A DNA stretch of 64,000 nt. Source: Azolla caroliniana. Lineage: Eukaryota > Plantae > Polypodiophyta. Under the pieces are notes generated by a model. The model did not search any database, had not been told where the DNA came from, and saw only the letters and a program-made list of their open reading frames with translations. Positions 609 to 25,200 of the stretch are shown here, one piece after another (position 1 is the first letter of the stretch; every line of letters begins with the position of its first letter). A program made the translations under genes and the position numbers. The stretch covers positions 7,378,001 to 7,442,000 of the forward strand of contig JBHGNT010000021.1 of NCBI GenBank assembly GCA_043228905.1, in the 5' to 3' direction.

Positions 609-630
609 CCTCTGCTCTTCTGCCGCCTCT

Positions 631-648
631 TTCACGTCGGGTTCACCA
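631..648 (-). promoter_or_regulatory. Primer binding site complementary to the 3' end of tRNA-Trp
   Basis: Minus strand TGGTGAACCCGACGTGAA, 4 nt from the LTR; matches the plant tRNA-Trp 3' end (...TTCACGTCGGGTTCA-CCA) as recalled. Confidence 0.8.
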
Positions 649-652
649 AATA

Positions 653-1278: not shown

Positions 1279-1299
1279 CCGCGAGGAAAAACCTCGACA
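1279..1299 (+). repeat. Last 21 bp of an oppositely oriented LTR of the same gypsy clade
   Basis: CCGCGAGGAAAAACCTCGACA resembles the reverse complement of the LTR start TGTCGAGGTATTCCTCGCGG; followed by GCGT and unrelated integrase. Confidence 0.7.
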
Positions 1300-2122
1300 G
1301 CGTGTCAACCAAATCCTTGAGCAGTATCTTCGGTGCTCGGTTAGTTACCAACAAGATGATTGGGGCAACTTACTTTCGCTCGCGGAATTCGCCTACAATA
1401 ATTCTCTCCATGCATCGACTGGCGTCACTCCCTTCTTTGCCAACTACGGTTTACATCCTCGCTTCAACATTTCCCTTCCTACCACTTCCGTGAACCCTTC
1501 GGCGGAGGATCGCGCCCACATTTTGGAAGAAGTACATCATGATTTATCCTTGGAGCTTAGTCTTGCTAGTGAACGATACAAGAAGCAGGCTGATCGCCAT
1601 CGATCTTCCACTCCACACTTTGTCGTTGGAGACATGGTCTGGTTGTTACGCCGACACATCTCTACTACTCGTCCATGTGCGAAACTTGATTACAAGAAGT
1701 TGGGACCATTCCGTATCATCGAGTGCATCAATCCCGTCGCCTTCCGACTCGCCCTTCCATCCCACTTCCGGATTCATGATGTTTTTCATGTCTCCCTCCT
1801 CGAACCCCATTATGCTTCACAACTCCCAGGACGTCAAGCCCCACCACCACCACCTGTGCAATTGACGACAGGGGAGGAATACGAGGTCGACCAAATCCTT
1901 GACTCACGTTGGCACCGTCGACACTTGCAATACCTCGTCCTATGGAGGGGTTACCCCATGTCTGAGGCCACATGGGAACCATCGGCAAATTTACAAAATG
2001 CCCCAGAGGTCGTCCAAGATTTTCATCACCGATATCCCCACAAACCAGCGGCCGATTTGGGAAGGCGGCGTAAGAGGGGGGATAATGTCAAGATTCGAAC
2101 TCTTGACACGACCATGTTATAA
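1300..2122 (+). CDS. Chromovirus (Tcn1-like) integrase C-terminus with chromodomain
   Basis: RVNQILEQYLR...AEFAYNN...GPFRI...HDVFHVSLL...EYEVDQILDSR...YLVLWRGYP...TWEP; PPT AAGAGGGGGGATAA at 2072-2085. Confidence 0.9.
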
Positions 2123-2438
2123 TCTAGTATTATGAGTTAACCAAGATATCTAGTACTAGTTATGTATGTAATTGGTCCTTATTATTTTGCTAGCATCATG
2201 TGCATAGTTGCTCCCTTGTAGTATTTACACTTGGCACATGCATGCATACCGACATGCTCTATTGTAGATTCACATGCGTGCAACAAGTATGCATGCCATG
2301 TAGTATAAATAGAGGAGTTCACCTTGAAGGGATTCAAGGTGAACAACACCAGTTATGGAGTCTTTCCTTTAATACTATCTTCTTTCTTGTCCATTTGGTT
2401 ATCTTCTTGCTTGTCTCTTGAGTTTATGATCCGTGACA
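2086..2438 (+). repeat. Chromovirus 3' LTR, copy 1
   Basis: TGTCA...TGACA, directly after the PPT; TATAAATA inside. Confidence 0.9.
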
Positions 2439-2442
2439 GTAA

Positions 2443-2794
2443 TGTCAAGATTCGAACTCTTGACACGACCATGTTATAATCTAGTATTATGAGTTAACCA
2501 AGATATCTAGTACTAGTTATGTATGTAATTGGTCCTTATTATTTTGCTAGCATCATGTGCATAGTTGCTCCCTTGTAGTATTTACACTTGGCACATGCAT
2601 GCATACCTACATGCTCTATTGTAGATTCACATGCGTGCAACAAGTATGCATGCCATGTAGTATAAATAGAGGAGTTCACCTTGAAGGGATTCAAGGTGAA
2701 CAACACCAGTTTGGAGTCTTTCCTTTAATACTATCTTCTTTCTTGTCCATTTGGTTATCTTCTTGCTTGTCTCTTGAGTTTATGATCTGTGACA
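2443..2794 (+). repeat. Chromovirus LTR, copy 2 (tandem, GTAA spacer)
   Basis: Near-identical direct repeat of 2086-2438 (about 3 differences seen). Confidence 0.9.
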
Positions 2795-3787
2795 AGAATG
2801 GGCAAAGACACCACCTGAACGGGCAAAGGCAAAGAGACTGTTGATTGCGCCAGTGGGGGAAGAACCGACAAGGGGAGAGACAGGAAGGAGAAAGGAGCCG
2901 AGTCGACAAAGGAAGTTGACACATCCAAACAAGTCGGAACAAGCGGCAACAAAGGCAGAGTCAAGAAGGACAGAGCCGACCGGAAGAAGAAGGCCAAGAC
3001 CCAGACATGGTCCGATGTGATGAAGGGCTTGGAACCAGAAGACAAATCGGGAGCAACCGATTCAGACAAGAGCTGGAACGAATCAGAGACAACTGATTCG
3101 GTTCTACGGAAGGATTCGGAAGAACCGGATCAATTCAAGGCCAAGAGGACAAGAAGGCAGCAAAAGTAGACGCCAACACGAAGGAATCGGTAGGTCGACA
3201 AGCGCCGAAATCATGGCAGCGAGGGAACTGAATTGGGCTTGTTGAGCAGACAAGCCGACCAAGAAGGTTGAGATGCGCAGAAACAGAAGGGTCGTAGCAA
3301 ACAGGACCGGACCGGACGAGGAGCACGAGCGAGGTGGAGTGATGCCAGAAGGAGCCAGGTGGAAGGATCGGCTGCCATAGAGACTAACACTATGATCCGA
3401 CCTCAAATTGAACTTGAGGGGGAGTGTTGAAGTGGCAAGCTCAACCGGATCCGGATCGACATCCAGAAGGGTGAGCCAGTGAGCTGGGGAGCCGGTTAGC
3501 TAGATTAAGCAATAACCGGAAGCCAAGTAACAGCTAGTCTACTAGGGAGTTAATATCTTGTAGTTAGTGTTAGACACTCGTGTGAGCATTGCAGTACACC
3601 GTACTTCTGTCAGTCTGGATGGACTTGTATAAAAGTGTTCACTGAACACATACGATGTATAGACTGAGTAGTATTTTTTGATTTAAGTTTCTGTGTGCTC
3701 TCTCTCTGTCTCTCATGTGTACTGTTAAGCTCTCCATTAAACCTGTTTTCTGTTTTCTATTGCTTCTGCACACTATTTTGTTCTACA
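2795..3787 (+). mobile_element. Ty1/copia 3' end: acidic tail region, PPT and 3' LTR (3425-3787)
   Basis: Similar to the reverse complement of 23530-23900 and 30965-31300; AACTTGAGGGGGAG then TGTTGA...TTCTACA. Confidence 0.8.
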
Positions 3788-6700
3788 AACCGTTATCCAG
3801 CACCTTGGTCTCCATGCAGGCCTTCGTAATGTATGGTTCGTCGAGTATCACCGGGTGTGAAGATTTCTCCTGCACGAAGAAGTGTTGATCTATCTCGACA
3901 TCTCCGATTTTAACGTGCGCGTTCGGGCATGCTCCATGTAGTTTCTTAGTAGCGCGTGTGGCCGCGCATATCTTCCATCCGTGCTTGATGTTGATCGGCC
4001 ATTTACCCTTTCTGTAGAAGTCCATTGACATCAGGTTTATCTCGGAACCGTGGTCTATCAATGCCACCACCGGCTCCTGAACGTCCCCGATCCGGACAAG
4101 TGTATCTGTAGTAGCCCTTGCACAATGCAACTTCAAATAGTGGCTCTCCGCCAATTTGTCCTCCAAGGCCGCGTCCTCTAAGTTCGTCGTCCACACTTCC
4201 ACGCGCTTCTCCGGTTCCGGCTCCGTCGTGAGCCTTTTACGCTTCACCAAGTCCACGATGGAATCGTGGAACTCCTTCTTGGTGATTCCGAGCACTTCCC
4301 TCAACGATAGCTCCACCTTGCTGTCAAGGATCCGTTCTTCGAGGACCTTCTGCAAGTCCGTTGCCCTTTCTATTTCCGTGCTCAGTCGGTAACCTGCCTG
4401 CCTTACCTTTTCCTGCGAGCCGGGACCGCTGTTGTCATTTCTTTTCGGGGCGCTCTGCGTCTCGTATCGGCCATAGGGTTCGGCCCCTCGGCCCTTTCCC
4501 GCTCGCTTATCTTCCACCAGAACTTCGACTGGATCGTCCCATCCCGTGACCTCCCGGACCCGCTTCTCCGCACGGTCCGCTTCCTCCTTCCTTAGCCGCT
4601 CTACGGAGAGGCCTTTGACCCATTCTATAAATTCCCGTTTTGATAACCAAAGCGAGTCATCGAAATCATACCTCTCGAGGAGCCTCCCTTCGAACGCCCC
4701 CCAAGTCTGGCAACCGGTGTCGTGAAGATCCATCATTATGTGCAGATCGTGAGGCAGAATCGCTGGGCTTCTGGATCAGAAGGACTCGAAGTATGCACTA
4801 GCTTTAGCGAGAAAGGAATTAATATAGATTGAGATAAGATAGAACGCTTGCCTTTAGATTGAGAGAGATTAAGATTGAACTCTTGACTTTAGATTTGAAG
4901 AACAAGATTGATACATCAATTGGATAATGAATTTCTTACTTTTAATTTCTTGATTAATACATTGCTCCCTTTTGATCTTTTTCATCCACCCTTTTATAGA
5001 TGCTCCCATGCATATGATGCATGTGAGGGTACAAGACATGCATACAATGCATGGAATGCATGTGATGCATGTTTGCCATTTGGCGCTCATGCATCACCTG
5101 TCACTCAATCAAGCTCTAATATGAGAATTTACATGTAAAACTATAATGATAGGAAAAACATTTCTAAGGAAATGACATAGCCTAATGGTAAGTCTATTGC
5201 CTCCTATCTTGGAGGTGTAATGTTCAAGTCTTACATACATCCCTTTTTAAAGCACAAAATACTATTAGGCTTTTGGTCTTGTAATTACACCAAATATCTT
5301 TAAGACACCATGCACCGCGATCAACCGATCCGTCTGATTTGTACCCGTTTGGTCTGCATCCCTAGCCGGTTTCGTCATTGGCCAGTCGCCGGTTGCCGGC
5401 GGCGGAATGTAAAACTATAATGATAGGAAAAATATTTCTAAGGAAATGACATAGCCTAGTGGTAAGTCTATTGCTTCCTATCTTGGAGGTGCAATGTTCA
5501 AGTCTTGCATACATCCCTTTTTAAAGCACAAAATACTATTAGGCTTTTGGTCTTATAATTACACAAAATATCTTTAAGACACCATGCACCGCGATCAACT
5601 GATTCGTCTGATTTGCACCTGTTTGGTCCGCATCCCTAGCCGGTTCCGTCACCGGCTGATCACTGGTCCGGTTTTGGTTGGCCAAAACCTTTGCAAGTAG
5701 CCAAGCCACAACCATTCATTTGATTAACTTAGTTCAAGTCACCTTAAACTCTCTATGATCCACTCATAGACACAAAATAATAGATTTTGTCCCTACTTAT
5801 ATACTCTGGGATCCTTATTTGTCCTTTCTATGTGGGATATCTCGTAGTTTTTCTTTTTCTCTTCTTCTTCGCAAACTTCATACCCACAGAACTTGTCACT
5901 TAGTTGTCTGATTCTTATGTGGTAAAGTGTATTCGAAAGCTCTTGAAGACCTTCATCTTTTTGTACCAAGATATTAAACTAGTATAATATAGAATCTTCA
6001 CTATTATTGTTTTATATTATGTGTGAAGAACCACACTCGATTTTGTACATTCCTCGCAATTTTCACACCGTTGCCGAAAATCTTCATGACACTGGCCTGC
6101 ATTTTGAGCACCTCCACGTGGATGCTTGGCGTCACCACCTGCGGGAATCTGGACAATCGTCTGTCCTCTGGAATGTCCCTCATTATCATTTCAGCCCGGT
6201 AGGCCACGAGATAGCTCATTGCGTTCTTACCTTCAAACCAGCCTATTGTGCTGACGATCGTTTCGAAGGCCTAGTCGAGGGTACCCGTACCTTCACTAGC
6301 ATTCACCAATCGGTCTATAGCTACCGCCATGGCTTGGGCGAGTTCAGTTCCCCTCATCTTCATACTCCTTTGCCGCCTGTTTCAAGTCGGGTTCAACAAA
6401 TTATGTCGTGAATTTATGCGTGTGCGTGCGAAACAAAGGCGGGACCATGGAGGCCTTGAACCAAGGAGCACAAGAAGGGAAAGAAGAGAAATGACACACG
6501 ATTATCAACAAGATGGGTACCAACGGTTAATTAGGGAAATAGAGGAATTAAAACTGGCTTAGCCGGGGGCTAAGCTACGAGCTCAGCCAACAACGCACAC
6601 ACTCACACACCAAGATACAACAGGGAGCCTCTAACGGGAGCACATAGGCTTACTACGCGAGCAGAGGCGTCCGTGCTAACCAAACGAAGTAGAAGGCAGA

Positions 6701-7028
6701 GAGCGGGTGCTCGGTTCCCAGTACAACAACACTTCGTTCTCCCTAAACGCGCGATCCCCCTCTTAGCCCTCTCTCCTGACCTTTATAGGTCCCCGAGGGA
6801 GGATCCATCACATCCTGTAATTACATCCTCTTTATTCTTTGTCGCTTCGGACAGAGATTCATTTCGATTTGTTAATCTATTTGATGTGTCTATATCAAAG
6901 TCTGTCCACAACACGTCGACCTATTCTTAGACTATGTACAAATAATTTACAACTACGTGCATCCGTGTATGCTATGGTTCAGGTGCTCAGGTTTTCGTTT
7001 CCGCTCGTAGCCGGTTTTCCTCACGACC
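3788..7028 (-). mobile_element. Decayed Trp-primed gypsy element: gag-protease remnant, PBS (6381-6398), 5' LTR (6404-~7028)
   Basis: ORF 3783-4736 has protease ALIDHGSEINLM and aligns with deletions to ORF 52757-54865; degenerate Trp PBS. Confidence 0.85.
4718..6091 (-). repeat. Solo LTR (1374 bp) with an internal ~274-bp tandem duplication (5133-~5660)
   Basis: TGTCGTGAAGAT...ATCTTCATGACA termini; TSD CCGG/CTGG; host gag resumes on both sides. Confidence 0.85.
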
Positions 7029-7668
7029 ACGGCCCCTGGTCCGGGCCGACTAACTTGGGCCACCGTCGAGAAGCTAAAGGGAAGGTATTGGTGGCTTGGA
7101 ATGTATATCGATGTGCATCATTTCGTAACGACGTGGGAGAGTTGCCAGATGCATTCCGAAATCCGGCACCGCGATGAACTGCACCCGACCTACCCGCCAA
7201 CCATACACTTCAAGTGAATGGTCAACTTGGTAATGATGGCGATGGGGGTAGGGAAAATGCGATATCTGGCACTTGCACGGGAGGATCTAACGAACCAGGT
7301 GGAGGGCCGAGCGTTGAAGGATAAGACTACTACGACTGTGTGTCACTTCCTCGTTGAGGAAGTGGTTTGCCGGTATGGGTGCATAAGCCAAATTGTGGTC
7401 GATCGAGGAGAGGTGGATGCACAAGAAGCCGAAGAGCTGTTCGAACGGTTAGGGGTGAAGCTTTCTCTCTCTATAGTGTACAATCCAGAAGCCAACGGGA
7501 AGGCAGAGCGCGGGCACGGGCCGATTGTGAAGGTGCTAGTACGAGCGTGCGGGGGACGAGTCAGAAATTGGCCGTGGCTTCTGCCTTTTGCTTTATGGGC
7601 GGACCAAACTACGCATGGTTCGATAACCAGGTACTTGCCGACGGAGCTTATGTTTGGGCAGAAGCCGG
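7029..7668 (+). pseudogene. Gypsy integrase core fragment
   Basis: AREDLTNQVEGRAL...YGC...DRGE...YNPEANGKAERGH, as in ORF 49266-50906; stops upstream. Confidence 0.9.
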
Positions 7669-9912
7669 TGTCCTGGGAAATTCCAGCTACAAGGGAAAAA
7701 GTAACGGAATGCGCATGAACGAGCGGGGGTGTGTGCGTGGATGCGCTCAAATATGGCTTTATGTATAAACACATGTAAATAACATAGGACTAGTAAGCGT
7801 TAGGAACTAGGATTCAATAGGTACTTAAATGTTTGCACGAATAGAGTGGAATGTGGGAGTTTGAAGCGAGGAGATCGAGGGAAATCTCTCTCCAAAGCGG
7901 TGGTTTAACTACTTGATGTAACAACCCTCTCTCTCCTTGGTCTATAAAAGGAGGGAGAGAGGACTGAGGAGGGATCCACATTTGAGGAGGACAAAGTGTT
8001 GTCGGTTTAGGGATCGAGCTCTATGTCTCTCTCTCATTTTCTGTTTGGTGCACGATTTGGTTGGAAGCCTCTGATCGCATAGGAAGCCCGTGTGCTCTTG
8101 ACAGAGGCTCCCCGTTGTGTCTCGGTGTCTCCACCCGTCTGTGCGTCTGTGTGTCTTTTGTGTGACTAGCCCTTGCTTTGACTCCGGTCGAGCCGGTTGT
8201 ATATTGTTATTCTCGTAATCTATAATATTCATTTGCTATCCTGTTTCGGTCCCCCCTCGTCTTCTTCTCCTCCTCCTTCTTCCTTCACTCCTTGGTCTAA
8301 GGCCCCCGCGTCCCGCCTTAGCCGTTGCACGTATACGCGTATAACCGTGACATATTTGGTGAACCCGACGTGAAACAGGCGGTAGAGGAGTCCAAAGATG
8401 AGAGCGGTAGCAGTTGATCGCTTAGTGAACGGTCGAGAGGGCATGGTGCCCTTGATAGGGCCATCGAGGTAATCGTCAGCATGATAGGCCGATTCGTAGA
8501 AAAGGACGCGACAAACTATCTCAGGCCAAGAGGATAATGAGGGACATCCTGGAGGACAGACGGCTGTCGGGATTCCCTCGGTTGCTGACACCGAGCATGC
8601 ATACGAAGGTGGTTGAGGTACAAGCTGGTTGCCGGAACTAGGAGGAGTTCGGAGAACGATTCCTCGAGAGGTACGGGATTGACGACTTGCTTTGGTTGTT
8701 GAAACGAGAGTTCATGGAGTGGGTCGACAGCCCCGGACAAGGGGTGAACACGTCGGTGCTCCTCCAGGTTGATACGAGCGGCATCCTACTTTTCATCAAG
8801 TCGGTGGATGCACTTGATTGAGAGAAGGTGGTTCTCCTACTGGATACGGACGAAGGACTCACTCACGGCCGATTGGGCCGTGGTAAAAAGGGTTTGTACC
8901 CGTTTTGACAAATGGTGAGAATGGAATGATCGAGAGTCGTAGACGACCGGCGCGGGAACCGGGAGGAAGTTAGAGGAGCCGATTCCGGTGTGGACGGAAG
9001 AGACTCGAAGGTGGCTCGAGTTGGGCACGGTCCCAACTAATGCGGTCAAAGGCCCGTCCGGGGGCGCAACTCTAGAAGAGCTGACGAAGATGGTACACGA
9101 TCTCTAGATCGCACAGGCCCGGAGGGATAGCGGGGGAAAATCGCGGGACGAAGGCCTCCGGCTGACCAACGATGTATGTGGTGTGACGCGGTCAATCACA
9201 TTTGAAGAGAGTGCGTCGACTTTGCCGAGGCACTCAGAAGTAACGTAGTGTACCTATGGAATGGGCGGGTGCACGCATGCGAGACCCGAAAACCACTAGA
9301 ATTGAATACCAGTCGAGGCGGAATGATGCGGTTATTGGAAGAAGCCACGACGCGACATGCTGAGGCTCTCCACTACTCAGTGTCGGCTGGCATCCAGGTT
9401 GGAGGTGATGGCGGTGGAAAGGTGAAGGATTTCGGGTTCTGGCCGTTGGTGTTGGAATGCCTTTCCGGCGTAAGGCTGAGGACGGAGGAAGCAGACCGCG
9501 CGGAAAGGCGGGTATGAGAGGTCACTGGATGGGATGATCCGGTCGAAGAGACGATTGGTTTCGTAGAGGCCTCGTGCCAGAACTACAAGGTTCTGGTGGA
9601 GGATAAGCGAGCGGGGAAGGGTAGAGGAACCGGAGCCGAAACCGACAACCGGTACGAGATGTGGGGCACTCCGAAGAAGAACGACGCCGGGGTTTCCGGC
9701 TCGCAGGAAAGGTTGAAGCCGGTAGGTTATCGGTTGGGTTCGGAAACAGAAAGGGCGATGGACTTGCGGAAAGTCCTTGAAGAGAGAATCCTCGACGACA
9801 GGGTAGAGTTGTCTCTAAGAGAAGTGCTAGGAATCGCCAAGGAGGAGTTCCATGACATGGACTTGGTGAAGCGTAAGAGGCTCGCGACGAAGCCGGAGCC
9901 GGAGAGGCCCGT
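7669..9912 (+). mobile_element. Truncated Trp-primed gypsy element: 5' LTR 7669-8352, PBS 8357-8374, decayed gag
   Basis: TGTC...TGACA LTR preceded by CCGG; TGGTGAACCCGACGTGAA; frameshifted gag (YLWNGRVHA, LSLREVLGIAK). Confidence 0.85.
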
Positions 9913-10751
9913 TGTCGCGGTAGTCCGCGCACGCGTGTTAGATCCAGGGCGGAACCACATGGGTCTTGGACCAGAGAGAGACGGAGTATGGAAGTTCGAG
10001 CTTCACTGTTTCCCATGACCGGCCAGGACACCAACCAGAGCATTTCCGGATACGTACCAAGAGCAACCGAGAGGAAAAAGGACGGTGCACGCAACACTGA
10101 CTAGACTCACGCATCCTATGTATAGAAACCAGAAAGAAGGAACTCCAAAGACACCAACACAGACACAAATGCACAGAACTTCACTAATATATATATATAT
10201 ATATGGGTCGAAGCACGCTACGGTGTACCAGAGAAGTACTGTTTTTGGCCACAAAAATTGTCAGTACTTTCAATAGTGTTAGTACTGAATAATTCAGAAA
10301 AAAAATTAGAGAAAAAGAAAATCGATTTTGGAGAGTGGGGTGACTGTAGTACAAGTGTCATTTACTGTAGAAGGAGTGGGGGGAACATGTGAGGAGATGT
10401 TCTTCCATTTTGGGGGCTATTTTCCCCTCACGTCGATTTTGGCGCTTCCCCTCACATCGTTTTGGCGATTCCCCTCATACTGTTCTTCCTCTATCCCTCT
10501 GAGCTTTTCATCACAGACATCCATGTCACGTTTCTGATTTTCCTTCAATCTAAATCTCAGACATCCATGTCTGGTTGGAGAGTTTGAGTTGAGGATTTCT
10601 GATTTTTTTAGGGTTTCTGTTTTTGTTAGGTTTCGATTGAGGTACAGAGACTGTTCTGAGGGTTTAGGTAGCAGCCAATAGTCACTTCTTCGACAACGAC
10701 TTTCGTACTTCCACCGATTGCAGTTGATGTCGTGGTGATTTGGGGCTTTTT

Positions 10752-11405
10752 CCACCAAATCGAGGCGGCATTGGAGGTTCCTTCCACCAAATTGAGGCTC
10801 CTTCCACCAAATCGAGGCGGCATATCCAACGCTCCCTCCACCATTGGAGGTTCCTTCCACCAAATCGAGGCGGCATATCCAACGCTCCCTCCACCATTGG
10901 AGGTTCCTTCCACCAAATCGAGGCTGCATATCCACGCTCCCTCCACCATTGGAGGTTCCTTCCACCAAATCGAGGCGGCATATCCAACGCTCCCTCCACC
11001 ATTGGAGGTTCCTTCCATCCATTTTTTTATTTTCAGTACTAAAATGTTTCATTTCTTCATATTTCAGTACTAAATTTTTAGAATTGACATTTGCCATATT
11101 TGATATGTAATTCTAATGTTTGAAACAAAATATTTCTCACTTTGCAGGCCACATTTAAAAACATTTGATTGTGTTTTCTTGGTTGAGTCTATATATCCAC
11201 GCTCCCTCCACCATTGGAGGTTCCTTCCATCCATTTTTTTATTTTCAGTACTAAAATGTTTCATTTCTTCATATTTCAGTACTAAATTTTTAGAATTGAC
11301 ATTTGTCATATTTGATATGTAATTCTAATGTTTGAAACAAAATATTTCTCACTTTGCAGGCCACATTTAAAAACATTTGATTGTGTTTTCTTGGTTGAGT
11401 CTATA
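10752..11405. repeat. 53-bp tandem array (about 4-5 units) followed by a ~212-bp direct duplication upstream of the transposase
   Basis: Unit CCACCAAATCGAGGCGGCATATCCAACGCTCCCTCCACCATTGGAGGTTCCTT at 10804, 10857 and onward; 10981-11192 repeated at 11194-11405. Confidence 0.95.
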
Positions 11406-11461
11406 TAACATTAACTACTTTCGCAAGACACTTAATTTTTGTGGATAAATCTAGTGACCGA

Positions 11462-14400
11462 ATGGGGGTTCCTAACGAGAGTGAGTTGTCAAGTAACTCA
11501 TGCATATCTGAAAGGACTAAGAGACGGTGGTTCTTCACATAGTCCGTTATTTGGTAGAAATAACGAAGAGATTTAGTGAAGAGGATCGTAGGGATATTAT
11601 CTGTAGAGTGTTACACCATCAAAGTTTGAATGAAGACATGGAGAGAATAAAATTTCGGGACCAATGTGTTTCAGAAGAGATTGTGGAGTCTATGAAGTCA
11701 TCCCTAGACTTAGTGAAAGGTGTAGAGAGCTTAGACAAACTTGCTGCAAAGAGGGCAGCCCTACACATGGTTGTGAACGGTGCGAGAGAAAAAAAATATA
11801 GTGATACTAAAGTTGCCTTAGCCCTGGGTATTCAAAGAAGGAACTTGAGGAAACATCGCCGAAATATACACTCAAGCAAATTCAAGTGGCTGGGGTCGGG
11901 ACGTAGACGACGATGTGATGCCTTATCTCAAGAGATTATTGAGAAAGTGGATTCATTTTGGGCCAAAAATACGCGTGTCTCACCAAATAAGAAGGACGTG
12001 TGTAGACAACGAATAAGTCAGGGTAAGTACCAGATTCACCCTAGACACTTCTTGGAGATGACAGAGGTATTCCATTTTTTTATATCAATTCACATTCCAT
12101 AACTTTGTGTTTTGACCAAGTGTATATTAATGTTTGCTATATATATTGGTTGATGTAGGCTGAATTGTACATGAACTTTAAAGACCAACATCCAAGCTTG
12201 ACTGTCAAATTCCGCAAGTTCCAAGGTTTGAAACCATTTTATGTTAGAAAATTAAATGAGAGGAATACATGTTGTTGTGTGTACCATGTGAAGATGGACA
12301 TGTTAAGGCTAGCAGTGAATGCAATGCGTACTGATTCTAAGGGTATACATGGGGAATTATGTGTCTGCACTTGTGAGATTTGTAGACCAAATGGGGAGGA
12401 TAATAGGTGTAATGCACGAAACATGACTTATGCATCCGTTTCTGAGCTATGGAGGTCTTGTGTTTGTGAAAAAGAACCATCATGTGAGTGGCATCGTCGT
12501 ACATGTCTATTAAGAACATGTAAGGTTTGTCCGCTACCATTATTTTGTAGGCAAGAGCTTGATATGGGAAATAGTCATATCGTGAAATGGAAATATTTGG
12601 AGTATGTGACTGAAAATATTGGTAAGGGAGTTGTAACTAAGCGTATAAAGGAAGTATATAAGGAGACATGTGCTGCTACCCTTGTCTCAGAATTTAAGAA
12701 ACAACTTGGGGAGTTTATTCCACATAACTTCCAGAGTTATTGGCAAAATTCACAGTTCAAGGAATGTATTAATAACTTACCAACGGGTGTCATTGTATCC
12801 GTTATTGATTTTGCAGAAAACTATACATTTAAAGTTCAAAATGAGGTTCAATCAATGCATTGGTACAATGATCAATGTACAATACTTGTACATATTTGCT
12901 ATTGGAGGCAAGACGACGAGTTACATAAGAAATCAATATTTTACATTTCAGATGATAAAAAGCATGATACACTATTTGTTCAACATTGTTTTAAGCTTCA
13001 CCATGCATATTTATTTTCTCTAGGGTTAACCTTTAACCGTCATTGGGTTTGGTCTGATGGTGCTGCCTCGCAGTTTAAGGCGGCACGATCGTTCTACTTT
13101 ATCGCCAGGTAATTTTTAATCCATATGTTTAGTACTTATCATGCAATGTGTAAGGAAGTAATTCTTGTGTTAGTGGATGCATACTAATTATGTTTGTAAC
13201 TATTAACAAACAGTACTAGTCACATGGATGCATACTAATTATGTTTGTAACTATTCGAATCTTGCACTTGTGAATGGATGCATGCATACTAATTTTGTTT
13301 GTATTATGTTGTACTAAGTAACTTTTAATCCATGTGAAGTGTTCTCCATAGACACATTGTACTATGTTGTGTTTACAGAAGGATGTAAAGTACTCATCTT
13401 GTACTCATAGTATTGTCCGTCCTTAAGAGAATTGTACTAATGATCTTTTTATCCATGTGAAGTGTTCTCCATAGACACATTGTACTATGTTGTGTGTATA
13501 GAAGGATGTAAAGTACTCATCTTGTACTTAGAGTATTGTCCGTCCTTAAGAGAATTGTACTAATTATGTTTTAATCCATGTGAAGGGTTCTCCATATACA
13601 CATTGTACTATGTTGTGTGTTGGTTTTGTACTATGTTGTGTTTACAAAAGGATGTAAAGTACTCATCTTGTACTCATAGTATTGTCCGTCCTTAAGAGAA
13701 TTGTACTAAGTATCGATTAATCCATGTGAAGGGTTCTCCATAGACACATTGTACTATGTTGTGTGTTGGTTTTGTACTATGTTGTGTTTACAAAAGGATG
13801 TAAAGTACTCATCTTGTACTTATAGTATTGTCCGTCCTTAAGAGAATTGTACTAATTATGTTTTAATCCATGTGAAGGGTTCTCCATAGACACATTGTAC
13901 TATGTTGTGTGTTGCATCTGTACTATGTTGTGTTTACAGGAGGATGTAAAGTACTCATCTTGTACAAATAGTATTGTCCGTCCTTAAGAGAATTGTACTA
14001 AATCAGTATTTACTCATGTTGTACTCATAGTATTGTACTCATCTTGTACTCATCTTTTAAACACACAGTGTGGTACTGATTATCTATTAATCAATGTTCA
14101 GCGTATCTATACTAAATCAGTGTTTATTGGGGGATGTAAAGTACATGTCTTGTAGTACTAATGATCTTCTAAGGAGGGTTGTGTTCTCCGTGGACACATT
14201 GTATTGTACTATCCGATATTGAACATTTTGTACTATTTATCTGTTAATACATGTAGAGTGCTTTCCATGAACTCATTGTACTATACTTTGTGCTATATCC
14301 ATACTAAGTTAGTATTAAATGGATGCCAGGTACTGTTGGTCGACAACATAGTACTATTTATCTTTTAATAAGTGTAGAGTGTTCTCAATGGATACGTTGT

Positions 14401-15393
14401 GCTATGCTTTGTTTTGTATTTGTACTAAATCAGTATTAATGGAAGTGTAGTACTCTCAATTGACAACATAGTACTAATTTTGTTGGAAACCTGAGATACC
14501 AAAGCAGGTATTTCTCCTTATTCAATATTCGTATGCAATGGAATTACTTCGGGTCTGGACATGGAAAAGGAGAGCATGATGGCGCGGGGGCTGTGATCAA
14601 ACGTGCCCTTACAAGTGAGCAGTTGGATAATAATGGCGCTAAGTTACAAAATGCACATGATGTTGTGCAGTGGCTAACATGGAAGATGTCAAATGATGGT
14701 AAGAACAAATTGTTTGTTGAAGTTCGCGCTGATGAGGTTGATAGAACTAAATCATATGGTTGTAAAACCGTGAAAGGCACACGCAGCACCCATTGTGTGT
14801 TAGGGTTTAGCCGCAAGGACACAACCCAATTGTTACTCCGTAGTTTATCATGCTTTTGTTCCATGTGTCTAGATGAAGCTTGGGATAAATGCATCAACCT
14901 ATCAATCGTGGAGCCCTGGAAGCTGCAGAAGCTTGAGCCTGAACGACAAGATGATATTGAAGAGGATGTGCATTCAAACGATATTGTATACTACAACCAA
15001 AATCAAGACTTGGCAGTTTTATTGGAAGTTGGAGATCATTTTGCAGTGCTCAAATATTCTCAGAATGAAGATTTAGAAGACTACTACATTGTGGTGTGCA
15101 AGCAAGGAAAGACATTATTGAAAGAAGTGGTGAGGGATGGTTGGGGCAACAATTTCAACGTTGGTGAGTCTGTCGTGTATGGAAACTATTATGCAAAGTT
15201 GCCGCAGTGCAAGAACACATATGCATTACTAAAAGAAGCACCCATCGCAATAATCTACGCTGATGCCATTCTTGCGATCAAATTCAATATGACTCAAGCA
15301 AAGCAGAAGGTTAAGGGATACAACACTGTCTACAAGGTCCCCCAAGAGGTTCATGAGCACATATTAGGGGAGGTCTCTCTATTTAATGCTTGA
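11462..15393 (+). CDS. Three-exon DDD transposase, Sola2-like (exons ~11462-12066, 12159-13108, 14508-15393), about 810 aa; apparent 1-bp frameshift near 11529
   Basis: GT-AG introns join in frame (EMTE|AELYM, FIAR|YFSLFNIRMQW); motifs IDFAENY, QNEVQSMHW, SDDKKHD, WSDGAASQFK, FGSGHGKGEHDGAG; Cys-rich segments. Confidence 0.88.
13327..14001. repeat. Tandem array of ~123-146-bp units (5 copies) in transposase intron 2, degenerate beyond
   Basis: Recurrent ATCCATGTGAAG...GGATGTAAAGTACTCATCTTGTAC...CCTTAAGAGAATTGTACTAA. Confidence 0.95.
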
Positions 15394-15538
15394 AAGTCAC
15401 CCTATCAATACATTGTACCAGAAAACTGAAAAACATCCACTTGGAGTTCACTATTAATTTTGATGATTGACAAATGAATTGATATATTTCGTCTTTCTTC
15501 CAAAGGGTTTATGCCTCTCAACCACTTGTACTTATCTT

Positions 15539-18500
15539 TCATAATATATTAGCTGTTGTCAACAGGACTTGGATTTCTTCATTGCCGATATTGCTCATGT
15601 TTCTTGATGTTATTTGAGCATAGGAGTTTTGCAGAGTTGGTGTGTCCTCTGTTGGCACATAAATCTGCTCTAGTTTTGCTACCAAGAGAAGATTGTTAGT
15701 TGAATTCATTAAAGACTTTAATATTGTAAGATTTTCTACTGTAAGTTCATTTTTCAAAGGGGGCGATGAATTCTGTGAAGACAGCAATGAAAATTATTCT
15801 CTCAGAATCCTTTTTTGTTTCATGATATGTCCTGTGAAGCCATCTGAGTTTTTACTTCTTGTATATAAGTCCTGAATATCCAGGCTATGGATTTTAAAGT
15901 ACAGACCTTCCTTTCCTTAACAAAATAATCCAACTTCTGAAACAATAATTTGTGATAGCTCAAAAAGGTAAGTGTTTCCTTACTACTGTTAGTGGATGAT
16001 TCATCCTTTGGGATGATATCATCAAAATATGGCCCACATTGCTTCAACAATTTGCACACATTCTGGTTACCCTCCAAATGGGATTGATGAAATAGTCTAT
16101 ACTTCAGTATATCTTCAATAACACCCGATATTTTTTGTTTCTCATCATCAACACCTAAAAACCTAAATTTTCCTAGCAAGGTAAGAAGACTTTCAAGCAT
16201 TTTATCTACAATAGACTGAAAGACTTTGCGAGGATTAGGAGATGATCTCAGAAAAGAAACAAAACGTTGTAAAATAAGAATACTTAGATCAAAAAGTATA
16301 TTCCCATTGTTTTTGATATATGTTGATGAGCAAAATATAGAAGCAATCCTTAAACATGAACTTGATTTCACACTGGTATAACTATTTCAGATTCATGAAC
16401 TGGATTTTTTACATTGGCAATTGAAACAGTATTTTGGTATCCAAATAGTTCAATTTCAGACATCACTAACAACTAAAGTTCAAGTACAATCGAAAGACAA
16501 TCAGGCACTAGACGGTAACTTGGCCGATCTTGTAATGCGCTTGTTGTTGGTGCCAGATTTTTCTGATTTTACATTCTTCTTTATCTTAAAGCCTTTAGGT
16601 ATGAGCTGACTAAGTGGCACTTCATCATCAGAGGCCTCAGAGACAGGCGTGGATGCGCGAGCACCTTGTACTGGTGGCAAGCTTGAGAGAGCAACTATGT
16701 TTTCTGCAATTGCAATGCTTGTACACAAATCCACAAAGGTGCTGTCGATAGACAAATTATCACTCATCTCCTGAATGCTTGTACTCCTAGCGATCTTTAT
16801 TGCCCTATCATCATCACCGATGCCTATACACTCGTTCTTATTAGACTCCTGTATGTGGCCCGTGGCAGTAGTCATGGTCAACTCCTCTTGTACGGTGGAT
16901 GTCACCTCATTCTTAAGACAATGTTGTTCGCTCTGAGTACAATCAGGCCCACCTTCATTAGTAACGTTGTTCGCTCTACACTCCTCATGGGATTCTGTAC
17001 AATCAGGCTTATCTTCAGGGAAAGCGATGTTCTTTCCACGATCCTCATGGGCTTCACAAGACACTACTAGCACATTCTCAGTACAATCAAGCTCCTCTTC
17101 ATTACTAGCAATGTTCTTTCCATGATCCTCATGGGAATCTTTAGATAGTACTAGCACATTATCAGTACAATCAGTCTTCTCTTCAGTACTTGCCATATTC
17201 TTCACAAGACACTACTAGCACATTCTCAGTACAATCAAGCTCCTCTTCATTACTAGCAATGTTCTTTCCATGATCCTCATGGGAATCTTTAGATAGTACT
17301 AGCACATTATCAGTACAATCAGTCTTCTCTTCAGTACTTGCCATATTCTTTCCACACTCTTCATGGGCTTCAATCTTCTCTTCAGTACTTGCCATATTCT
17401 TTCCACACTCATAGGCTTCTTTAGACATAGTGTTGTTTGTACATGCCAGCTGCTCTTCACATATGAATGCTTCGTTTTTCTCACAATCCTCATGTGTGGA
17501 AGATGTGCTTCCAGAGTCTGCCTCCTTGCAAAGGTTAATTTGATTCTGACTCTGATGGGAATCTGATTCTGCACTTGTGCTCCATGAAGTTCCCGATTCA
17601 TTTGATTGCAGTTGGGAATCAGACTGCTCTTGTAAACCTAATTAATGGGATTCCAAAGAATATTGGTATGAACTCACATACTCAAAAGTTTGCAAACAAT
17701 GAACATAGGGTTTAGGGCCACATTTTTACCTAATGTTACATTGTCATACTGTACAGCCGTAGATACCCCATTGCAAGTGGTGGGCTCGGTCATCTTCTCC
17801 ACAACATCTAGGTGCTCAACAGTGTTGTTATGATCTATAATAACAACAAAAATAGGGTTGTTATGAGCTAAATCATTGTTTTCAAAGTCTGGCTTTTGAC
17901 GTGTACCTGGGAGTGTTATAAATTCGTCTTCATGATTAGGTTTTGGACTCGTATCTCCGTCACCAAATATCATTTCATCATCAGCTAGTAACACAAGTAC
18001 ATGGTATTAGACAATGGATTAGGTTGACAATGCTCCAGACAGGTGAGAACTTATATGACTCACCATTGCATTCAACTTTGCCTTTCTTGCCGTTTCCATA
18101 CAACATTCTTGCAACATTTCTCTTCTTACTGGGCTCTATTTGTAAAGAAACTGCATTTCTCTTCTTAGTGGGCTCTATTTCTTGATGTTGACCGGAGCTT
18201 GGGGAATTTGTTTGTAGAAGCATATGTTCCACTGCTCCAATGGCCCTTCTCATACATTCATCCTCATCATAAAAATCATAGGTTATTGGTAATGATGGTC
18301 CTGAACCTTGGAATGTGCAGCAGATATTGAGGGTTTAGGCACAGGGGCTGGTTGTTCCATTACCTTCCCTGGTGTGGAGTTGCTTGACACTACAACATTC
18401 ATTGCAAGAAACAAAAAAACCTTAAATGTTAGTACCATCATCTAAAATATATAATGTAGGTCACAAGAGCTACTTCCCATTTTACACAATGTACCAATCA

Positions 18501-21193
18501 TGAACAATGTACTACTCACATAGTTCCTAAATTACTGAACTAGTACTAATAAGGAACACTGTACTGCTCACTTAGTTCCCAATTTACACGATTAGTACTA
18601 ATCATGCACAATATACACAAGTAGTACTAATCATGCACAATATACACAAGTAGTACTAATCATGCACAATATACTACTCACTTAGTTACCAAATTACACA
18701 AGTACTAATCCCGAAAAATGTACCACTGACTTAGTCAAATTTAATAAGTAGTACTAATCTTGAACAATGTACTACTCACTTATTTCCTAAATCACTGAAC
18801 TAGTACTAATCCCGAACAATGTACTGCTCACTTAGTTCCCAATTTACACAAGTAGTACTAATCATGCACAATATACTACTCACTTAGTTACCAAATTACA
18901 CAAGGAGTACTAATCCCGAACAATGTAATGCTCACTTAGTTCCCAATTTACACAAGTAGTACTAATCATGCACAATATACTACTCACTTAGTTACCAAAT
19001 TACACAAGGAGTACTAATCCCGAACAATGTACCACTGACTTAGTCAAATTACACAATTAGTACTAATCCTGAACAATGTACTACTCAACAATGTACCACT
19101 GACTTAGTCAAATTACACAATTAGTACTAATCCTACAAAATGTACTACTCACTTATTTTCTAGATTACTGATCTAGTACTAATAAGGTACAAAACTAGTA
19201 CTAATAAGGAACAAAGTACTACTCAGTTCCCAAATTACAAAACTAGTATTAATCATGAGCAATGTACTAGTAACTTAGTTCACAAAGTACAGAACTAGTA
19301 CTAATCATAAACCATGTAGTACTTACTAAGTACTAATCCAACAAATGTAGATTGGTATTTTGCACACAAGTAATACTAAACATGATATGTCTTCTACACA
19401 CCTAGTTACATAACTTGTACTAATTACACCAACAGTATTAATCTTGAACAGTATTAGTACTAAACGTGATATGTGTTTGACACACCTCATTTCCAAATTA
19501 CAATAATTGTACTATTATTCAGCAATTTACTATACACCTTGTTCCCAAATTACATTACTAGTACTAATTCCCAAGTTACACAAACAATACTAACAGTCAA
19601 CAGTGTACTATAAGTATAGTGTTTACTAAACTAATACTAGGCAAGTTGCAATATAGATTGGACGATGTTGTACCTGGTTCCCTTTTAGTACTACTAATTC
19701 TGGAAAATATCCCTTCAACTACACATACCAATTATATATTAAGAGTACTGCCAATACTAACCCACATAATTAGGGTTCCACATAATAGTTGTTAGAGATT
19801 ACACTAAATTTGAAGTATGAATTGTGGCATACACTAGTTCTAGTCCAAATGTTAATTGACATCATATAATACAAACAATAGAATAGTAGAGCCACATACC
19901 GTACGGGTGTACTTTTAAACCCCAAGCATAGTACCACTCAGCCGCAATTGTAGTTTTACAGTCCATACATGTATTCTCTTTCTCAAAATGATACTTAGCA
20001 CATAGCACATGATATGTGTGCAAGCATGGTGTAATCACAACATCCATAGCCTCCAGCTTGAATCCGAGGCCACAAAATATACACCTGGAAGATTGCAAAC
20101 ACAAGTTATAATATATTAGCTGCTCACTTATTTATACCAAAGAAGTAGAAATAAATAACTTTTAAAGCCAATACCGTGATATAGCTATACTAATAATGGT
20201 ACTTTCTATACCACTTGGGTGCTCAATTACAGATGGACACAAAGTATCAAAACCATTTTGTTTTAAATCCTGCATCAAGCATGCAAGGTTCTCAGAATGC
20301 AACTTTAAGGCTGACAACTTATTATCTATTTCTTCATGTACATTCCTGCAAGTATCAAGGTCTCTCATATGTGAACCTAATTGAGTGCCCAAATTGTTTA
20401 GCTCTTTCTTCAACTCCTCTTTCAACACCTCACTTTCTGAATTTTGGATTGTCGATGCAATCCATTCATATGTAGTTTTTATTGAAGAAAATTTCTTTTC
20501 TGCCTGTATCTCAGCTGATTTAACTGCTTCCAAATTAGCAAGTAGTGTTTGTATTCTTGAGCTCATAGAAGCTATGCAACCGGCCATCATCTGTTCATGC
20601 TTTTCAGTCATTGTGGCCCGTACCTTTGCCTCTAGAACTTGGTGGACAGGTGTTATAGCTAGAATATCCACATGAGAGGTTCCAGATGACTTCAAGCTAG
20701 TGTTGGTACTAGAGGACCCTTTGTAATGTTCTGACCGGTGCCGATTAAAATCTTCCCAATTTACGTCAATGCCACCTTGAACTTCACATGCAAAAGCACG
20801 TGCAAAAACAGTACCCACCTCATTGTTAGTGATTTGATTTGTATCATAAACATGTTCGTATCTCGTCTTCAATAAATTCATGTATTCCCTCTTCAAACCA
20901 CTTATGTGGAATCCTCGCCTTGTGTCGGGATGTGCTGACCCCCAGGTTTTTAACAACCACTCTCTCAGCTCTGGATACACGTCAGGTCGTGCTCGAAGGA
21001 AATAATTCCATCCAAGAGGTGTGTCTCGACTGATGGAGTGGTACATCTTCTTTCTCTGTGTTGATGAATTCATCACCCTTTCTCTTGTGGGTGTCTTCTT
21101 GCTTTCTTTCATGGGTGTCGTTCTTCCTTCCTTCACTGGTGTCTTCACTTTCTCTTTCATCAATGTCTTCTTTATGGGTGTCCTTCTCGTCAT
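15539..21193 (-). CDS. Multi-exon cargo gene of the DNA transposon: basic/Thr-Pro N-terminus, coiled coil, RING-H2 finger, acidic repeat region, possible C-terminal helical exons; probably frameshifted
   Basis: Exon 21193-20175 splices in frame (GT 20174...AG 20085) to exon 20084-19900, CIFC-x15-CLHTYHVLC-x10-CMDC; further same-strand ORFs 17981-18253, 17674-17994, 17183-17428, 16501-17205, 15820-16371, 15539-15787. The 3' exon linkage is inferred. Confidence 0.7.
16950..17420 (-). repeat. Coding tandem repeats (GKNMASTEEK / DCTENVLV units); one imperfect duplication shifts the frame near 17200
   Basis: Repeated peptides in ORFs 16501-17205 and 17183-17428. Confidence 0.85.
18480..19570. repeat. 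~52-bp AGTACT-containing tandem array in a cargo-gene intron
   Basis: AGTACTAATC recurring at 18854, 18906, 18958, 19010 and others. Confidence 0.9.
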
Positions 21194-22196
21194 TGTCCTA
21201 GTCAACACAATTCTCAGGGAATGAATATGCATGTACTAGAAGAAAACTCAAGCAATTACCATCAACACATAGCAAATCATCACATTGCATGTACAAACCA
21301 TGTCAAACACACAATAACCCTAAATAGTCAGAAAAAAACTCATCCATGTCAAACACACAGACAATAAAAACAGACGGATAGGAAAGTCAAAGAAAACGAA
21401 AACATTGTAAATCATCATAGCCAACTCCATCACATCGCATGTACAAGCCATGTCAAACACACAAAAACCCAAAATAGTCGGAAAAACACTCATCCATGTC
21501 AAACTCACACAAAATAAAACAGATGGACAGGAAACAAGAACAAAACGAAAACATAGCAACTCATCATAGCCAACTCCATTTACGTGGCATGTACAAACAT
21601 GTCTAACACACAACCACCTCGATCAAAATATTGTCATACATTTTTAAAAGAAACACAGAGAAACACAGAGAAAACAAAAACATACCAGTTGGGCATGCAA
21701 CACATAGACTATGAATAATCAAACCCTAAAAATGACCATACACATGCAAATAAAAAACAGACAGACAGGAAACATTCAGAAAAAGAAAACATAACAGTTG
21801 GGCATGCAACACAGAGAATACCTGGAGGTCGTACAACTTGCAGAGGTACCACACCGTGTTGATTTCGACAAACGAGGCTGCTGCAGAGGAGACAAATGAG
21901 CATAGACAGAGGAAACAAACGAGCATACACAAGGAAGGAAAATCAACAACACATACAACGAGCAGGGGAAACAAAAATCTCTGTGTTCAGAGATCGAACC
22001 TGGCACAGAGGGGAACACAAGAACAGCTATGCGGGGAAACAGAGAATCGAAGGTGGAGTGAGAGAGAGAAACAGAAAGAAAGAAAGAAACAGAGCTTTGA
22101 AGGTGGAGTGAGAGAGAGAAAGAGAGAGATAGACCTGTAATAGATATGTCGTCTTTCTTTAACTTTCTGTCACTGTCTGTCTGACAACTTCGAGAC

Positions 22197-22244
<48 letters not shown>

Positions 22245-25200
22245 GTGAGTGAGAGAGGGAGAGAGATACTGAGACTGACCAACTATCACAATGGATACCT
22301 TCTCCAGGTGTGCTTTCGTACAACTCTACCTAGGAGACTGGGGCAACAATTAATGTATTAAATATGGCCTAGGGACATTTCGAGTGTGACGTACAATATC
22401 TTTGTGCATTCGAGTGTGACGTAATGAATTTGTTTTTTGTTTTTTGAAACTTATTTACAATTTTTAATGTTTATTTTCTTCTTCGATTTAGTACTAAATT
22501 TTTGGCCAAAAGTTGGTACACCGTAGCATGCTTCGACCCATATATATATAAGAACAAGATACAACTCTGGCCTTGAACCGGACCAAGGTCGGTTAGGTTA
22601 CAACAACAGTCTGCTGCCAAGTCGCCGATCGGGGAACTCTCGGGCTTGTCGCGTCGAGCGGGGTCTTGCACAGGAGACAAAGTAGCAGCGAAAACCCCTT
22701 TGGACATATAAGCTCTTTACCGGACTAAACCCTAAACAAACACGATGAAGAAGACCTCAAAGAAACTCTAAAAGTAAGAAGAAGAAAGCTACCAAACTCT
22801 AGATCTAAGTGGTATACCCTCCTAACTTAAAATGGGCAACCCCTCTACAAGGGACCCTCCCTTCCTTTTATAGCCCAAGGAGGGAGGGACGGTACAATGT
22901 GGGATAAATTCCTTATTACATGGGATTCTTTGTCCCAACTTAACTCCTATTCGGTGCCGTAAAGGCACCCCATTATCTTACATGGATATACAAGGGTGAG
23001 TGCTCACGCCGCACCCTCTCGGTATTCCCAATCGACACGGTTTTCTCACTATGGCCGTGAATCTTCACGACATCCGCCCCCACCAAACCGCACGTCCACT
23101 GGTACATGGCAAATCTAAAGAAGGTGAAAAAGATTATGTGTGGAAGCAATAGAAAACCGAATACAGAAAATACGCAGGTTTAATGGAGAGCTTGAATATA
23201 CACAGTATGCGGGAGAGACAGAGAGAGAGAACACACAGAAACTCAATTCAAAATAATAGTCAATTTGTACATACACCGTGCTCAGTGAACACCTTTTATA
23301 CAAGCCTTGACAATAGGGCGGACACAAGTATTGACAGTACTTGACCACTCATAAATGAGCCTACTACACTAACTCCCAAAATTATTCCTTACGAGGAATA
23401 TCTTCCCAACGGCCTCGTAGTTTACGCATTGATACGGCCATGTTTTGCGTACCGATTTATGCACCCAGTCTACGCATTGGGTTACGCATCGTATTACGCA
23501 CGAATGTTGAACTTGTCTCTCAACACTCCCCCTCAAGCTCAACTTGAGGTTCCGCTTGCTCCGCCGGATCTACGTTCTGGCTTCTCCTGGCTCCACGCCT
23601 CGCTCGCATTCCTCGACCCGTTCGGTTCCACGCACCTCGACCCTTTCGGTCGACTTGTCTGCTCACACGGCCTTTCTCAGCTTCCTTGTTGTTGCAGTGT
23701 TGGCACCTCTTCTGCTGCCTTCTCTTCCGCTTGGCCCTTGGTGGATTCTACGTATCCGAATCAAACATCCGAACCGACTTGGTTTCCTTCAATTGGTTTA
23801 CGCTCTCGTCCGAGTTGGCTGTCTCCAACTCATCTTCGGACTTCTCGCCTTTGATGGCTTCATCTCCCCCATGCTTGGTTGGCTTCGGCTCTTTCTTTCG
23901 ACTACTCCCCTTATGTCCGCTTTCGGACTCTTCCGCGGATCCGCCCTCGGCTTCTTCAACCAATCCAAAATCAAATTCATCATCCGACTCGGCGTCACGG
24001 TCTTTTCCGCTCCTTTCTTGCTCCCTTCCGTGGTCATCATGGACGTCTCTCCCCCTCAAGTTCGGCATGTCGAGGTAACGCAACCCAAGCACACCCGAGA
24101 ATTGCCGCAACTTGTCTAGACCAAGAGGCTTGGTGAAGATGTTGATGTTCTGCTGATCCGTCGGAACATACTGAAGTTCGACTTCAGTGGAGAGGACACA
24201 CTCACGGACAAAATGGTAGTGCACCTCAATGTGCTTAGTCCGGGCATGGAAGACGGGGTTCTTAGCTAGTTGGATGTTGCATAGGTTGTCACAGTAGATT
24301 GTCGTTGGATTGGATACCGCCACCTGCAGATCCTTAAGTAGCCGCTTCAACCATATGGCTTCGCATGTCGTGACAGCCGCTCCTCTATACTCGGCTTTGG
24401 TGCTCGACAACGCAACTGTCGGCTGCTTCTTGCTACTCCACGCGATCGCGGCACTCCCAAGAGAGAACGCAAAACCGGACGTGGATCGGCGATCGCCGGC
24501 GTTTCCGGCCCAATCAACATCGGTGTAACTGACCAACTGCGCGGCAGTATCGGTTCAATATAGTAGCCCCTGGTCCTCAGTGCCACTGATGTACCAGAGT
24601 ACGCGTTGTGCGCACTGAAGGTGCTGCTCAGTCGATCGCGCCATGAACTAACTAATCACCCTGATCGGGTAGCTGAGATTTGGTTGGGTGATGGTCAAGT
24701 ATATAAGTCTTCCGACTATCTGTCAGAACCTCGTCGGGTCGCATACCTTTCCGGAATCAGGGCGAAGCTTGACGGTTCTATCCAGAGGAGTCGAGATGGA
24801 CTTACAGTCGGCCATCTCGAATTTGAAGAGCATACTTAGTACGTAATGCCGTTGGCTGATCAATATGCCTTTGGGGGTGCGGATCACTTCGATCCCGAGG
24901 AAGTAATGAAGGTCCCCCAGATCCTTCATGTCGAATGATGCCGCAAGCTGGAGCTTCATGCGGTCAATCTCACCTAGGTCGGCTCCGGTGATGACCAGGT
25001 CATCAATATAAAGTAAGATGCTAACCGGCCCGAGTCGACCTTTCTGGATGAACAGTGAGGAGTCCGATTTTAATGTCGCAAAGCCCAACCGACGCAATCG
25101 TTGCGTGATCTTTGCGTTCCAGGCACGCGGGGCTTGCTTTGGTTTGTAAAGGGACTTCTTCAATCGGCACACCGCCAAAGTGTTCATTCCGGAGTGAAAC

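Follow-up and report, generated by a model that had tools for sequence, protein, structure and literature searches.

A probable two-gene Sola2 transposon family of the fern Azolla caroliniana, with palindrome arrays and a candidate regulator of its own expression

Background

Transposons of the Sola superfamily, within which the Sola2 group is said to go back to Bao et al. in 2009, move by cut-and-paste transposition catalyzed by a DDD enzyme. Sola2 elements as a rule begin with 5'-GRG; Sola1 elements prefer AT-rich targets and Sola3 elements prefer TTAA. A 64,000-nucleotide stretch of the genome of the fern Azolla caroliniana (GenBank assembly GCA_043228905.1, contig JBHGNT010000021.1, positions 7,378,001 to 7,442,000 of the forward strand; hereafter the window, to which all positions refer) carries a 12,335-bp element (10205–22539) that almost certainly belongs to Sola2 and that harbors, besides its transposase gene, a convergent second gene (gene 2) and large arrays of a short palindrome.

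Several described elements are close to this one in some respect. The Sola2-Fanzor elements of Dictyostelium and Polysphondylium bear a second gene in their 3' part (PMC3627910), and Sola1-1_Ec32 from Ectocarpus is a giant (21.5 kb) whose accessory gene is read from the other strand (PMC12477816). Amoebozoan Sola2 members are given as beginning with GAA, GAG or GTT in the published account. The plant entry in published lists of Sola had been Sola1 of Physcomitrella, and one annotation line of a preprint names Sola2 as the commonest DNA transposon of Cupressus sempervirens (bioRxiv 10.64898/2026.07.23.736688). An earlier note on this DNA, made from its letters alone, had pointed to Sola2 in a plant and had called the size, introns and second gene of the element unusual; the conifer preprint already names the group in a land plant, and Sola2-Fanzor and the 21.5-kb Sola1 are precedents for cargo and size as such, so that the novelty would lie in the conservation of the second gene and in the motif arrays. 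Outside of Sola, flowering plants have Mutator and CACTA elements that demonstrably escape silencing in a sequence-specific manner, through VANC and TnpA respectively, two systems to which the layout of the Azolla element is compared below.

The element and its family

The element is bounded by 26-bp terminal inverted repeats (TIRs; 10205–10230 on the plus strand and 22514–22539 on the minus strand) that start with GGG and agree at 25 of 26 bases, as established by comparison of the ends and a genome-wide pattern search. Both TTTTGGCCA and AGTACT lie inside each end, at unequal offsets; AGTACT is found at 10235, 10263 and 10281 (10235–10286) on the left and at 22490–22495 on the right. The TIRs and the partial subterminal symmetry reported in the earlier note are therefore real. 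The ATAT flanks that it also reported are present on both sides (10201–10204 and, by flank comparison, 22540–22543), but they sit in an (AT)n tract of a long terminal repeat (LTR)-like sequence, so that this copy alone is insufficient to fix the length of the target site duplication (TSD) and the 4-bp rule comes from other copies. A paralogous repeat at 46447–46757 (72% identity) is continuous across the insertion point.

Counting copies by a genome-wide search for the TIR, as had been proposed, was productive: the 523-Mb genome has 167 matches to the exact pattern, and a relaxed one detects 416 ends (about 200 elements), the controls giving 0 in both cases (reversed pattern for the exact search). 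In this family (family A), 16 end pairs could be matched among the matches listed and were fetched. An exact 4-bp TSD flanks 15 of them, the remaining copy agreeing at 3 of 4 positions, and all 10 copies examined from a young subfamily have one as well. Overall, 25 of 26 other copies thus carry a 4-bp TSD, and these TSDs are of mixed sequence, without base preference. No pair of the size of a miniature inverted-repeat transposable element was seen among the matches listed, the shortest pair being about 4.2 kb apart. One 8.2-kb copy (G000 C9:12809425-12817662) has both ends, a TSD and part of gene 2; it gave no long transposase match.

The young subfamily consists of 15 copies that have a variant left end in common. 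The 10 examined differ from each other by 3–14 substitutions over 12.2 kb and from their majority sequence by 2–8, and both genes are open in all of them (proteins of 813 and 922 aa). At the plant substitution rate of about 1e-8 per site per year, the subfamily would be tens of thousands of years old. In older copies with all exons, the transposase gene is open in only 1 of 11 and gene 2 in 3 of 14. Family A has therefore been mobile recently, and the window copy, which belongs to the older set, is dead, as both of its genes are frameshifted; as a whole, this copy is therefore not intact.

The transposase and its assignment to Sola2

Upstream of the transposase gene, a non-coding region (10750–11407, plus strand) contains 5.1 tandem copies of a 53-bp unit, as well as a duplication of 212 bp with four AGTACT. 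The gene itself, on the plus strand, has three exons (11462–12066, 12159–13108 and 14508–15393) that encode 813 aa in intact copies. In the window copy, one base is missing near 11526, a change private to it (1 of 16 copies) that makes the spliced frame stop at codon 27, so that the spliced transposase of about 810 aa announced for this copy exists in the family but not here. Its introns are supported by spliced sequences of related transcripts: seven polyA RNA reads and one contig for intron 1 (12067–12158, 92 nt, GT..AG), and one contig, from a run whose RNA nature is a guess, for intron 2 (13109–14507), which contains a GTACT-rich 123/146-bp tandem array. Most RNA reads are 80–95% like the window copy. 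A contig of run X1 (depth 2.7) joins the donor of exon 2 to an acceptor 4.6 kb downstream (13105–17754); this GT..AG junction, antisense to gene 2, might be an aberrant splice form or come from a deleted copy.

All three motifs read earlier, DFAENY, SDGAASQFK and HGKGEHDG, are present. Exon 2 encodes a Cys-rich region followed by the first two catalytic Asp (DFAEN, 12807; SDG, 13056), and exon 3 the third one (HGKGEHD, 14578), followed by a beta domain at the C-terminus. Compared by eye, the protein tracks the Sola2 alignment published as supplement S10 of PMC3627910 motif by motif (F..L.P, CxC..H, a Cys cluster, DFAENY, ISDD..HD, SDGA..QFK and HGK...D). The three Asp are 83 and 41 residues apart, and the 41-residue gap, also counted by eye, is the same in the published alignment. 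The short TIRs of family A and of another family found in this genome (family B, see below) start with GGG, which is consistent with the 5'-GRG ends of Sola2. Since the published motifs and spacing match and the TSDs are 4 bp long, the assignment of the element to Sola2, already made in the earlier note, is very nearly certain. The mixed TSD sequences speak against Sola1 and Sola3, and the absence of both a Mutator-type transposase and a long TSD speaks against a VANDAL-type Mutator element. A Pfam search of the transposase exons found no family, and no solved Sola2 structure was among the structural matches obtained.

The fold was approached through a homologue, P0001 (49% identity over exon 2), whose structure model has a mean predicted local distance difference test (pLDDT) of 77.8. 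Alignment of this model with integrase and mariner cores (best Z 11.3, root-mean-square deviation 3.3, 160 residues aligned) indicates that the catalytic core has an RNase H/integrase fold. Weak Foldseek matches of the same model to a BAH-like domain (E 0.04–0.07) provide a lead, and only a lead, on the C-terminal domain. A stretch resembling this domain (14950–15393) is also found in the distant hit P0038, and two other distant Sola2-like hits, P0120 and P0129, either contain a Ulp1/SENP protease or bear its name. In a midpoint-rooted tree of 50 hits, built without a labelled Sola2 or Repbase reference, the window protein falls in a 31-row clade (support 99/98) together with all named plant sequences, which are from Klebsormidium, Calypogeia, Ceratodon, Cryptomeria and Taxus, the named animal rows being outside. 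The simplest explanation is that the transposase belongs to an old streptophyte lineage.

The second gene

The presence of a second gene, as the earlier note had stated, was borne out: six minus-strand exons, all bounded by GT..AG, encode 913–922 aa in intact copies, and the window copy is frameshifted. Exon 1 (20175–21193) encodes a basic N-terminus, a compact domain (about residues 55–160; N-domain) and a long coiled coil. Exon 2 (19900–20084) encodes a finger, and the junction of these two exons is found in 17 reads of a related family; the other junctions are predicted. Intron 2 (18390–19899) contains a 52-bp-based tandem array with 23 AGTACT. Exon 3 (18064–18389) has a 1-bp deletion near 18299 (2 of 16 copies). 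Exons 4 (17907–17984) and 5 (17730–17834) are predicted from GT..AG boundaries and the open frame of intact copies, and exon 6 (16501–17637), which in this copy has undergone an out-of-frame length change, encodes acidic peptide repeats and a short basic end. According to minus-strand reads of related copies, the 3' untranslated region is likely to cover 15550–16500 on the same strand. It includes a 188-codon frame (15820–16386), for which the status of third gene was ruled out because one of the young copies has it interrupted. Between the stop codons of the two genes (15340–16400), plus- and minus-strand reads run into each other, and overlapping 3' ends could make double-stranded RNA there.

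The finger has the C3H2C3 ligand pattern and matches Pfam zf-RING_2 with E 4.5e-5, at 24.1 bits (below the curated cut-off of 27.3), and the homologue P0160 passes Pfam zf-RING_11. Family A, a homologue from Adiantum and the moss-type loci all retain the ligands. These data suggest a finger of RING-H2 type, for which ligase activity is only predicted. All named homologues of gene 2 come from the fern Adiantum. The N-domain was modelled at pLDDT >90. When the model of gene 2 was used for fold searches, the matches were to coiled coils only, and a search of the ESM Atlas with the N-domain of the window found nothing. A link to PMD domains through a homologue in that atlas (0.78, in a cluster with 32% PMD members) was below chance level and was not used, and a derivation of the N-domain from the transposase received no support (probability 0.2%). 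Between the consensus sequences of young and older copies, the ratio of nonsynonymous to synonymous changes (pN/pS) of gene 2 is, from small counts, 0.44 for codons 1–400 (15 versus 9 changes) and 0.49 for codons 400–600; that of the transposase is 0.13. The conserved part of gene 2 is under purifying selection.

Families, second genes and arrays

Family B (at least 150 matches in the same genome) has 25-bp TIRs related to those of family A, a 4-bp TSD in 6 of 6 copies, an open 619-codon transposase exon in many copies and the same convergent two-gene layout (for example L192-L193, C2:19435747-19447395). Its gene 2 shows a weak match to the N-domain (probability 59.6, E 9e-5) and a match to an FCP1/NIF-like domain (E 1.3e-6), with no RING match. 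A NIF match was also found in 2 of 60 downstream frames of the other loci scanned. In all three FCP1-like copies, that of family B and these two, the catalytic motif departs from the canonical one. As the N-domain is joined to a RING in family A and to an FCP1-like fold in family B, gene 2 appears to be modular, with a common N-domain and differing partners.

Related transposases were found in 80 metagenome loci, of which 47 were tabulated, 23 of these with at least 3 kb of downstream sequence. In 12 of these 23 (10 distinct), N-domain or RING matches lie on the minus strand, 3.3–8.9 kb downstream of the transposase; one RING match is on the plus strand, and none is upstream of a transposase in the tabulated loci. 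A first profile of gene 2 had no match in the 23 long loci, and the domain-level profiles did match. A search of the same 23 loci for complete TIRs with TSDs gave just two chance-like pairs. In one locus (L154:3658-4917), a RING-bearing frame is directly behind the transposase on the same strand, an exception to the convergent layout. The second gene nevertheless keeps its position and orientation across families whose transposases are only 30–50% identical.

The palindrome AGTACT occurs 47 times in the element, compared with a mean of 4.7 (maximum 10) in shuffled sequences, and TAGTACTA occurs 22 times, compared with a mean of 0.3. Thirty-four AGTACT are in the two large introns, eight in the terminal regions, five in the repeat exon of gene 2 and none in the transposase exons; the core GTACT, counted on both strands, occurs 50 and 58 times in the two introns and twice in the transposase exons, which total 2.4 kb. 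No match longer than 19 bp exists between the arrays of the two introns, and both show a TGTACT strand bias in the same direction (25:1 and 10:1). Most motifs of family A are intronic and 3–9 kb from the ends. In family B, another word is enriched: TAGCTA occurs 202 times (2 in the window element) and AGTACT 6 times (47 in the window element). TAGCTA sits in both large introns and next to the element ends; the TIR of family B does not contain it. The TIRs of the two families remain alike while their motifs and N-domains diverge. Each of five other loci of the nearest clade has a distinct word of its own, which occurs in at least two places in four of the five. The moss-type loci L122, L134, L135, L151, L158 and L191 share a weakly enriched GAGTCC/AGTCCA/AGTCCC-like word.

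A model for the lifecycle and its rivals

Taken as a whole, the lifecycle of these elements might be viewed as follows. The DDD transposase would move the element by its 26-bp ends in a cut-and-paste manner, leaving 4-bp duplications. The protein encoded by gene 2 would dimerize through its coiled coil and bind, by its N-domain, the palindrome of the intron arrays and of the subterminal regions. The attached RING (family A) or FCP1-like fold (family B) would then act on chromatin or transcription proteins, and the protein would thereby sustain expression of the family that encodes it in the face of silencing by the host. A two-gene Sola2 with such a motif-binding, self-activating second protein is the reading that we favor overall, if by little. 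The role of gene 2 as a family-specific regulator, taken for itself, is about evenly poised; it is put forward because the layout repeats those of VANDAL/VANC and Spm TnpA, because the TIRs of families A and B are alike while motifs and N-domains diverge and because most motifs are far from the ends.

A second explanation, rather unlikely in our view, is that the arrays are extra binding sites of the transposase and that gene 2 encodes a protein cofactor of transposition, as has been suggested for the second genes of PIF/Harbinger or MuDR elements. The motif just inside each end in both families, the GTAC core within the family A TIR and the long coiled coil, which suits protein contacts, would all fit such a cofactor, and transposases are reported to be able to act as sequence-specific regulators or activators in their own right. 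It accounts poorly for motifs that are mostly intronic and 3–9 kb from the ends, for a family B TIR devoid of the motif although the TIRs are related, and for animal Sola2 elements, whose descriptions, as far as cited here, include no such gene. Gene 2 could also help without binding DNA, the RING ubiquitinating, or the FCP1-like fold sequestering, a host silencing or transcription factor while the arrays serve otherwise. This is improbable: the conserved RING-H2 ligands and the recurrence of FCP1-like domains in family B and in 2 of 60 downstream frames speak for it, but the part common to the RING and FCP1 types is the N-domain, the catalytic motifs of the FCP1-like domains are altered and the family-specific arrays are left unexplained. 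Least probable is that gene 2 is useless captured cargo and that the arrays are slippage by-products of expanding introns. In its favor, words are enriched in whatever tandem array repeats them, gene 2 has a nearly neutral tail and giant Sola elements carry varied cargo according to the accounts cited; this explanation is already weakened by the constant position and orientation of gene 2, the pN/pS of 0.44 in its conserved part, the same word in non-homologous arrays and the spliced polyA reads of related copies.

Several observations also weigh against the self-activation that we favor. As the reads are mostly 80–95% like the window copy, the expression that they document is that of relatives only. 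Pfam has no match for the N-domain, and a profile search of solved structures gave nothing under E 0.46, so that its binding to DNA is only assumed. The motif adjoins the element ends too, and the published activity of transposases as activators, mentioned above, would offer another binder. The gene 2 tail has a pN/pS of 1.0, all pN/pS values resting on small counts. No gene 2 match was found in 11 of the 23 long metagenome loci; the domain profiles were iterated on these same loci, from which one N-domain seed was taken; and the decayed loci of moss type show only a weak excess of motifs. Lastly, C-to-T changes per 1000 sites in young copies amount to 2.0 at CG, 1.6 at CHG and 0.19 at CHH, and the roughly tenfold excess of CG and CHG over CHH recurs in each of ten regions of the older copies, without any decrease next to the arrays. 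Copies are thus probably methylated for the most part, although a mutation spectrum is blind to transient activation.

Genomic setting

The element forms a low-GC island within the retroelement-rich DNA of the window, 1–10200 and 22540–58400 being made of nested Gypsy- and Copia-like fragments. A 135-bp tandem array is located at 58907–59716.

Comparison with known systems

If the proposed self-activation holds, the Sola2 elements of ferns and mosses would represent the same design evolved again with unrelated parts, and their second proteins a new DNA-binding domain with natural motif–protein pairs. It is conceivable, though we hold it with reserve, that streptophyte Sola2 is a third, independently evolved sequence-specific anti-silencing system, with a DNA-binding domain, co-evolving arrays, interchangeable effectors (a RING ligase or an FCP1-like phosphatase fold) and, in this genome, intact and probably still mobile copies. 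The intact, near-identical copies make Sola2 transposition directly testable. With about 200 copies in family A and 150 or more in family B, these elements also amount to a visible fraction of the genome that bears no Pfam signature, so that annotation pipelines can miss such elements or call their genes host genes.

No description of a two-gene plant Sola2 was found in the papers searched; Repbase and Dfam, which were outside the search, may contain such families. What looks undescribed is therefore the layout, a conserved convergent second gene combined with motif arrays in a plant Sola2. The element shares with the Sola2 group the same DDD motif series, short TIRs and 4-bp TSDs, as far as the alignment in PMC3627910 (supplement S10) goes, and differs from it by its plant branch, its array-swollen introns, its conserved second gene, the lack of TSD base preference and some 270 residues after the third Asp that might include a BAH-like domain. 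Sola2-Fanzor has a TnpB-like nuclease as cargo and AT-rich TSDs, and motif arrays are not described in the sections of PMC3627910 cited here. Sola1-1_Ec32 belongs to Sola1, and its accessory protein combines ParB and a DNA methyltransferase (PMC12477816). The Sola2 elements of Cupressus are likewise from a land plant and are represented by the annotation line alone.

The closest parallels in layout come from other superfamilies. VANDAL elements of Arabidopsis also have a family-specific short motif in intronic and terminal non-coding tandem repeats, and their accessory protein VANC also joins a conserved domain to variable peptide repeats; they have a Mutator transposase, no homology of gene 2 to a Pfam family was detected, and the binding and demethylation demonstrated for VANC (in the part of PMC5735166 cited) are conjectural here. 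Spm/CACTA elements likewise combine an accessory factor with clustered family-specific motifs that diversify with the family, but they have CACTA ends and terminal motifs, and TnpA derives from a transposase whereas the N-domain shows no resemblance to the Sola2 transposase (bioRxiv 10.64898/2026.08.24.746577, as far as cited). Taken together, the Azolla element appears to be a member of Sola2 that is variant in its anatomy and that, by inference only, would work in the manner of VANC or TnpA.

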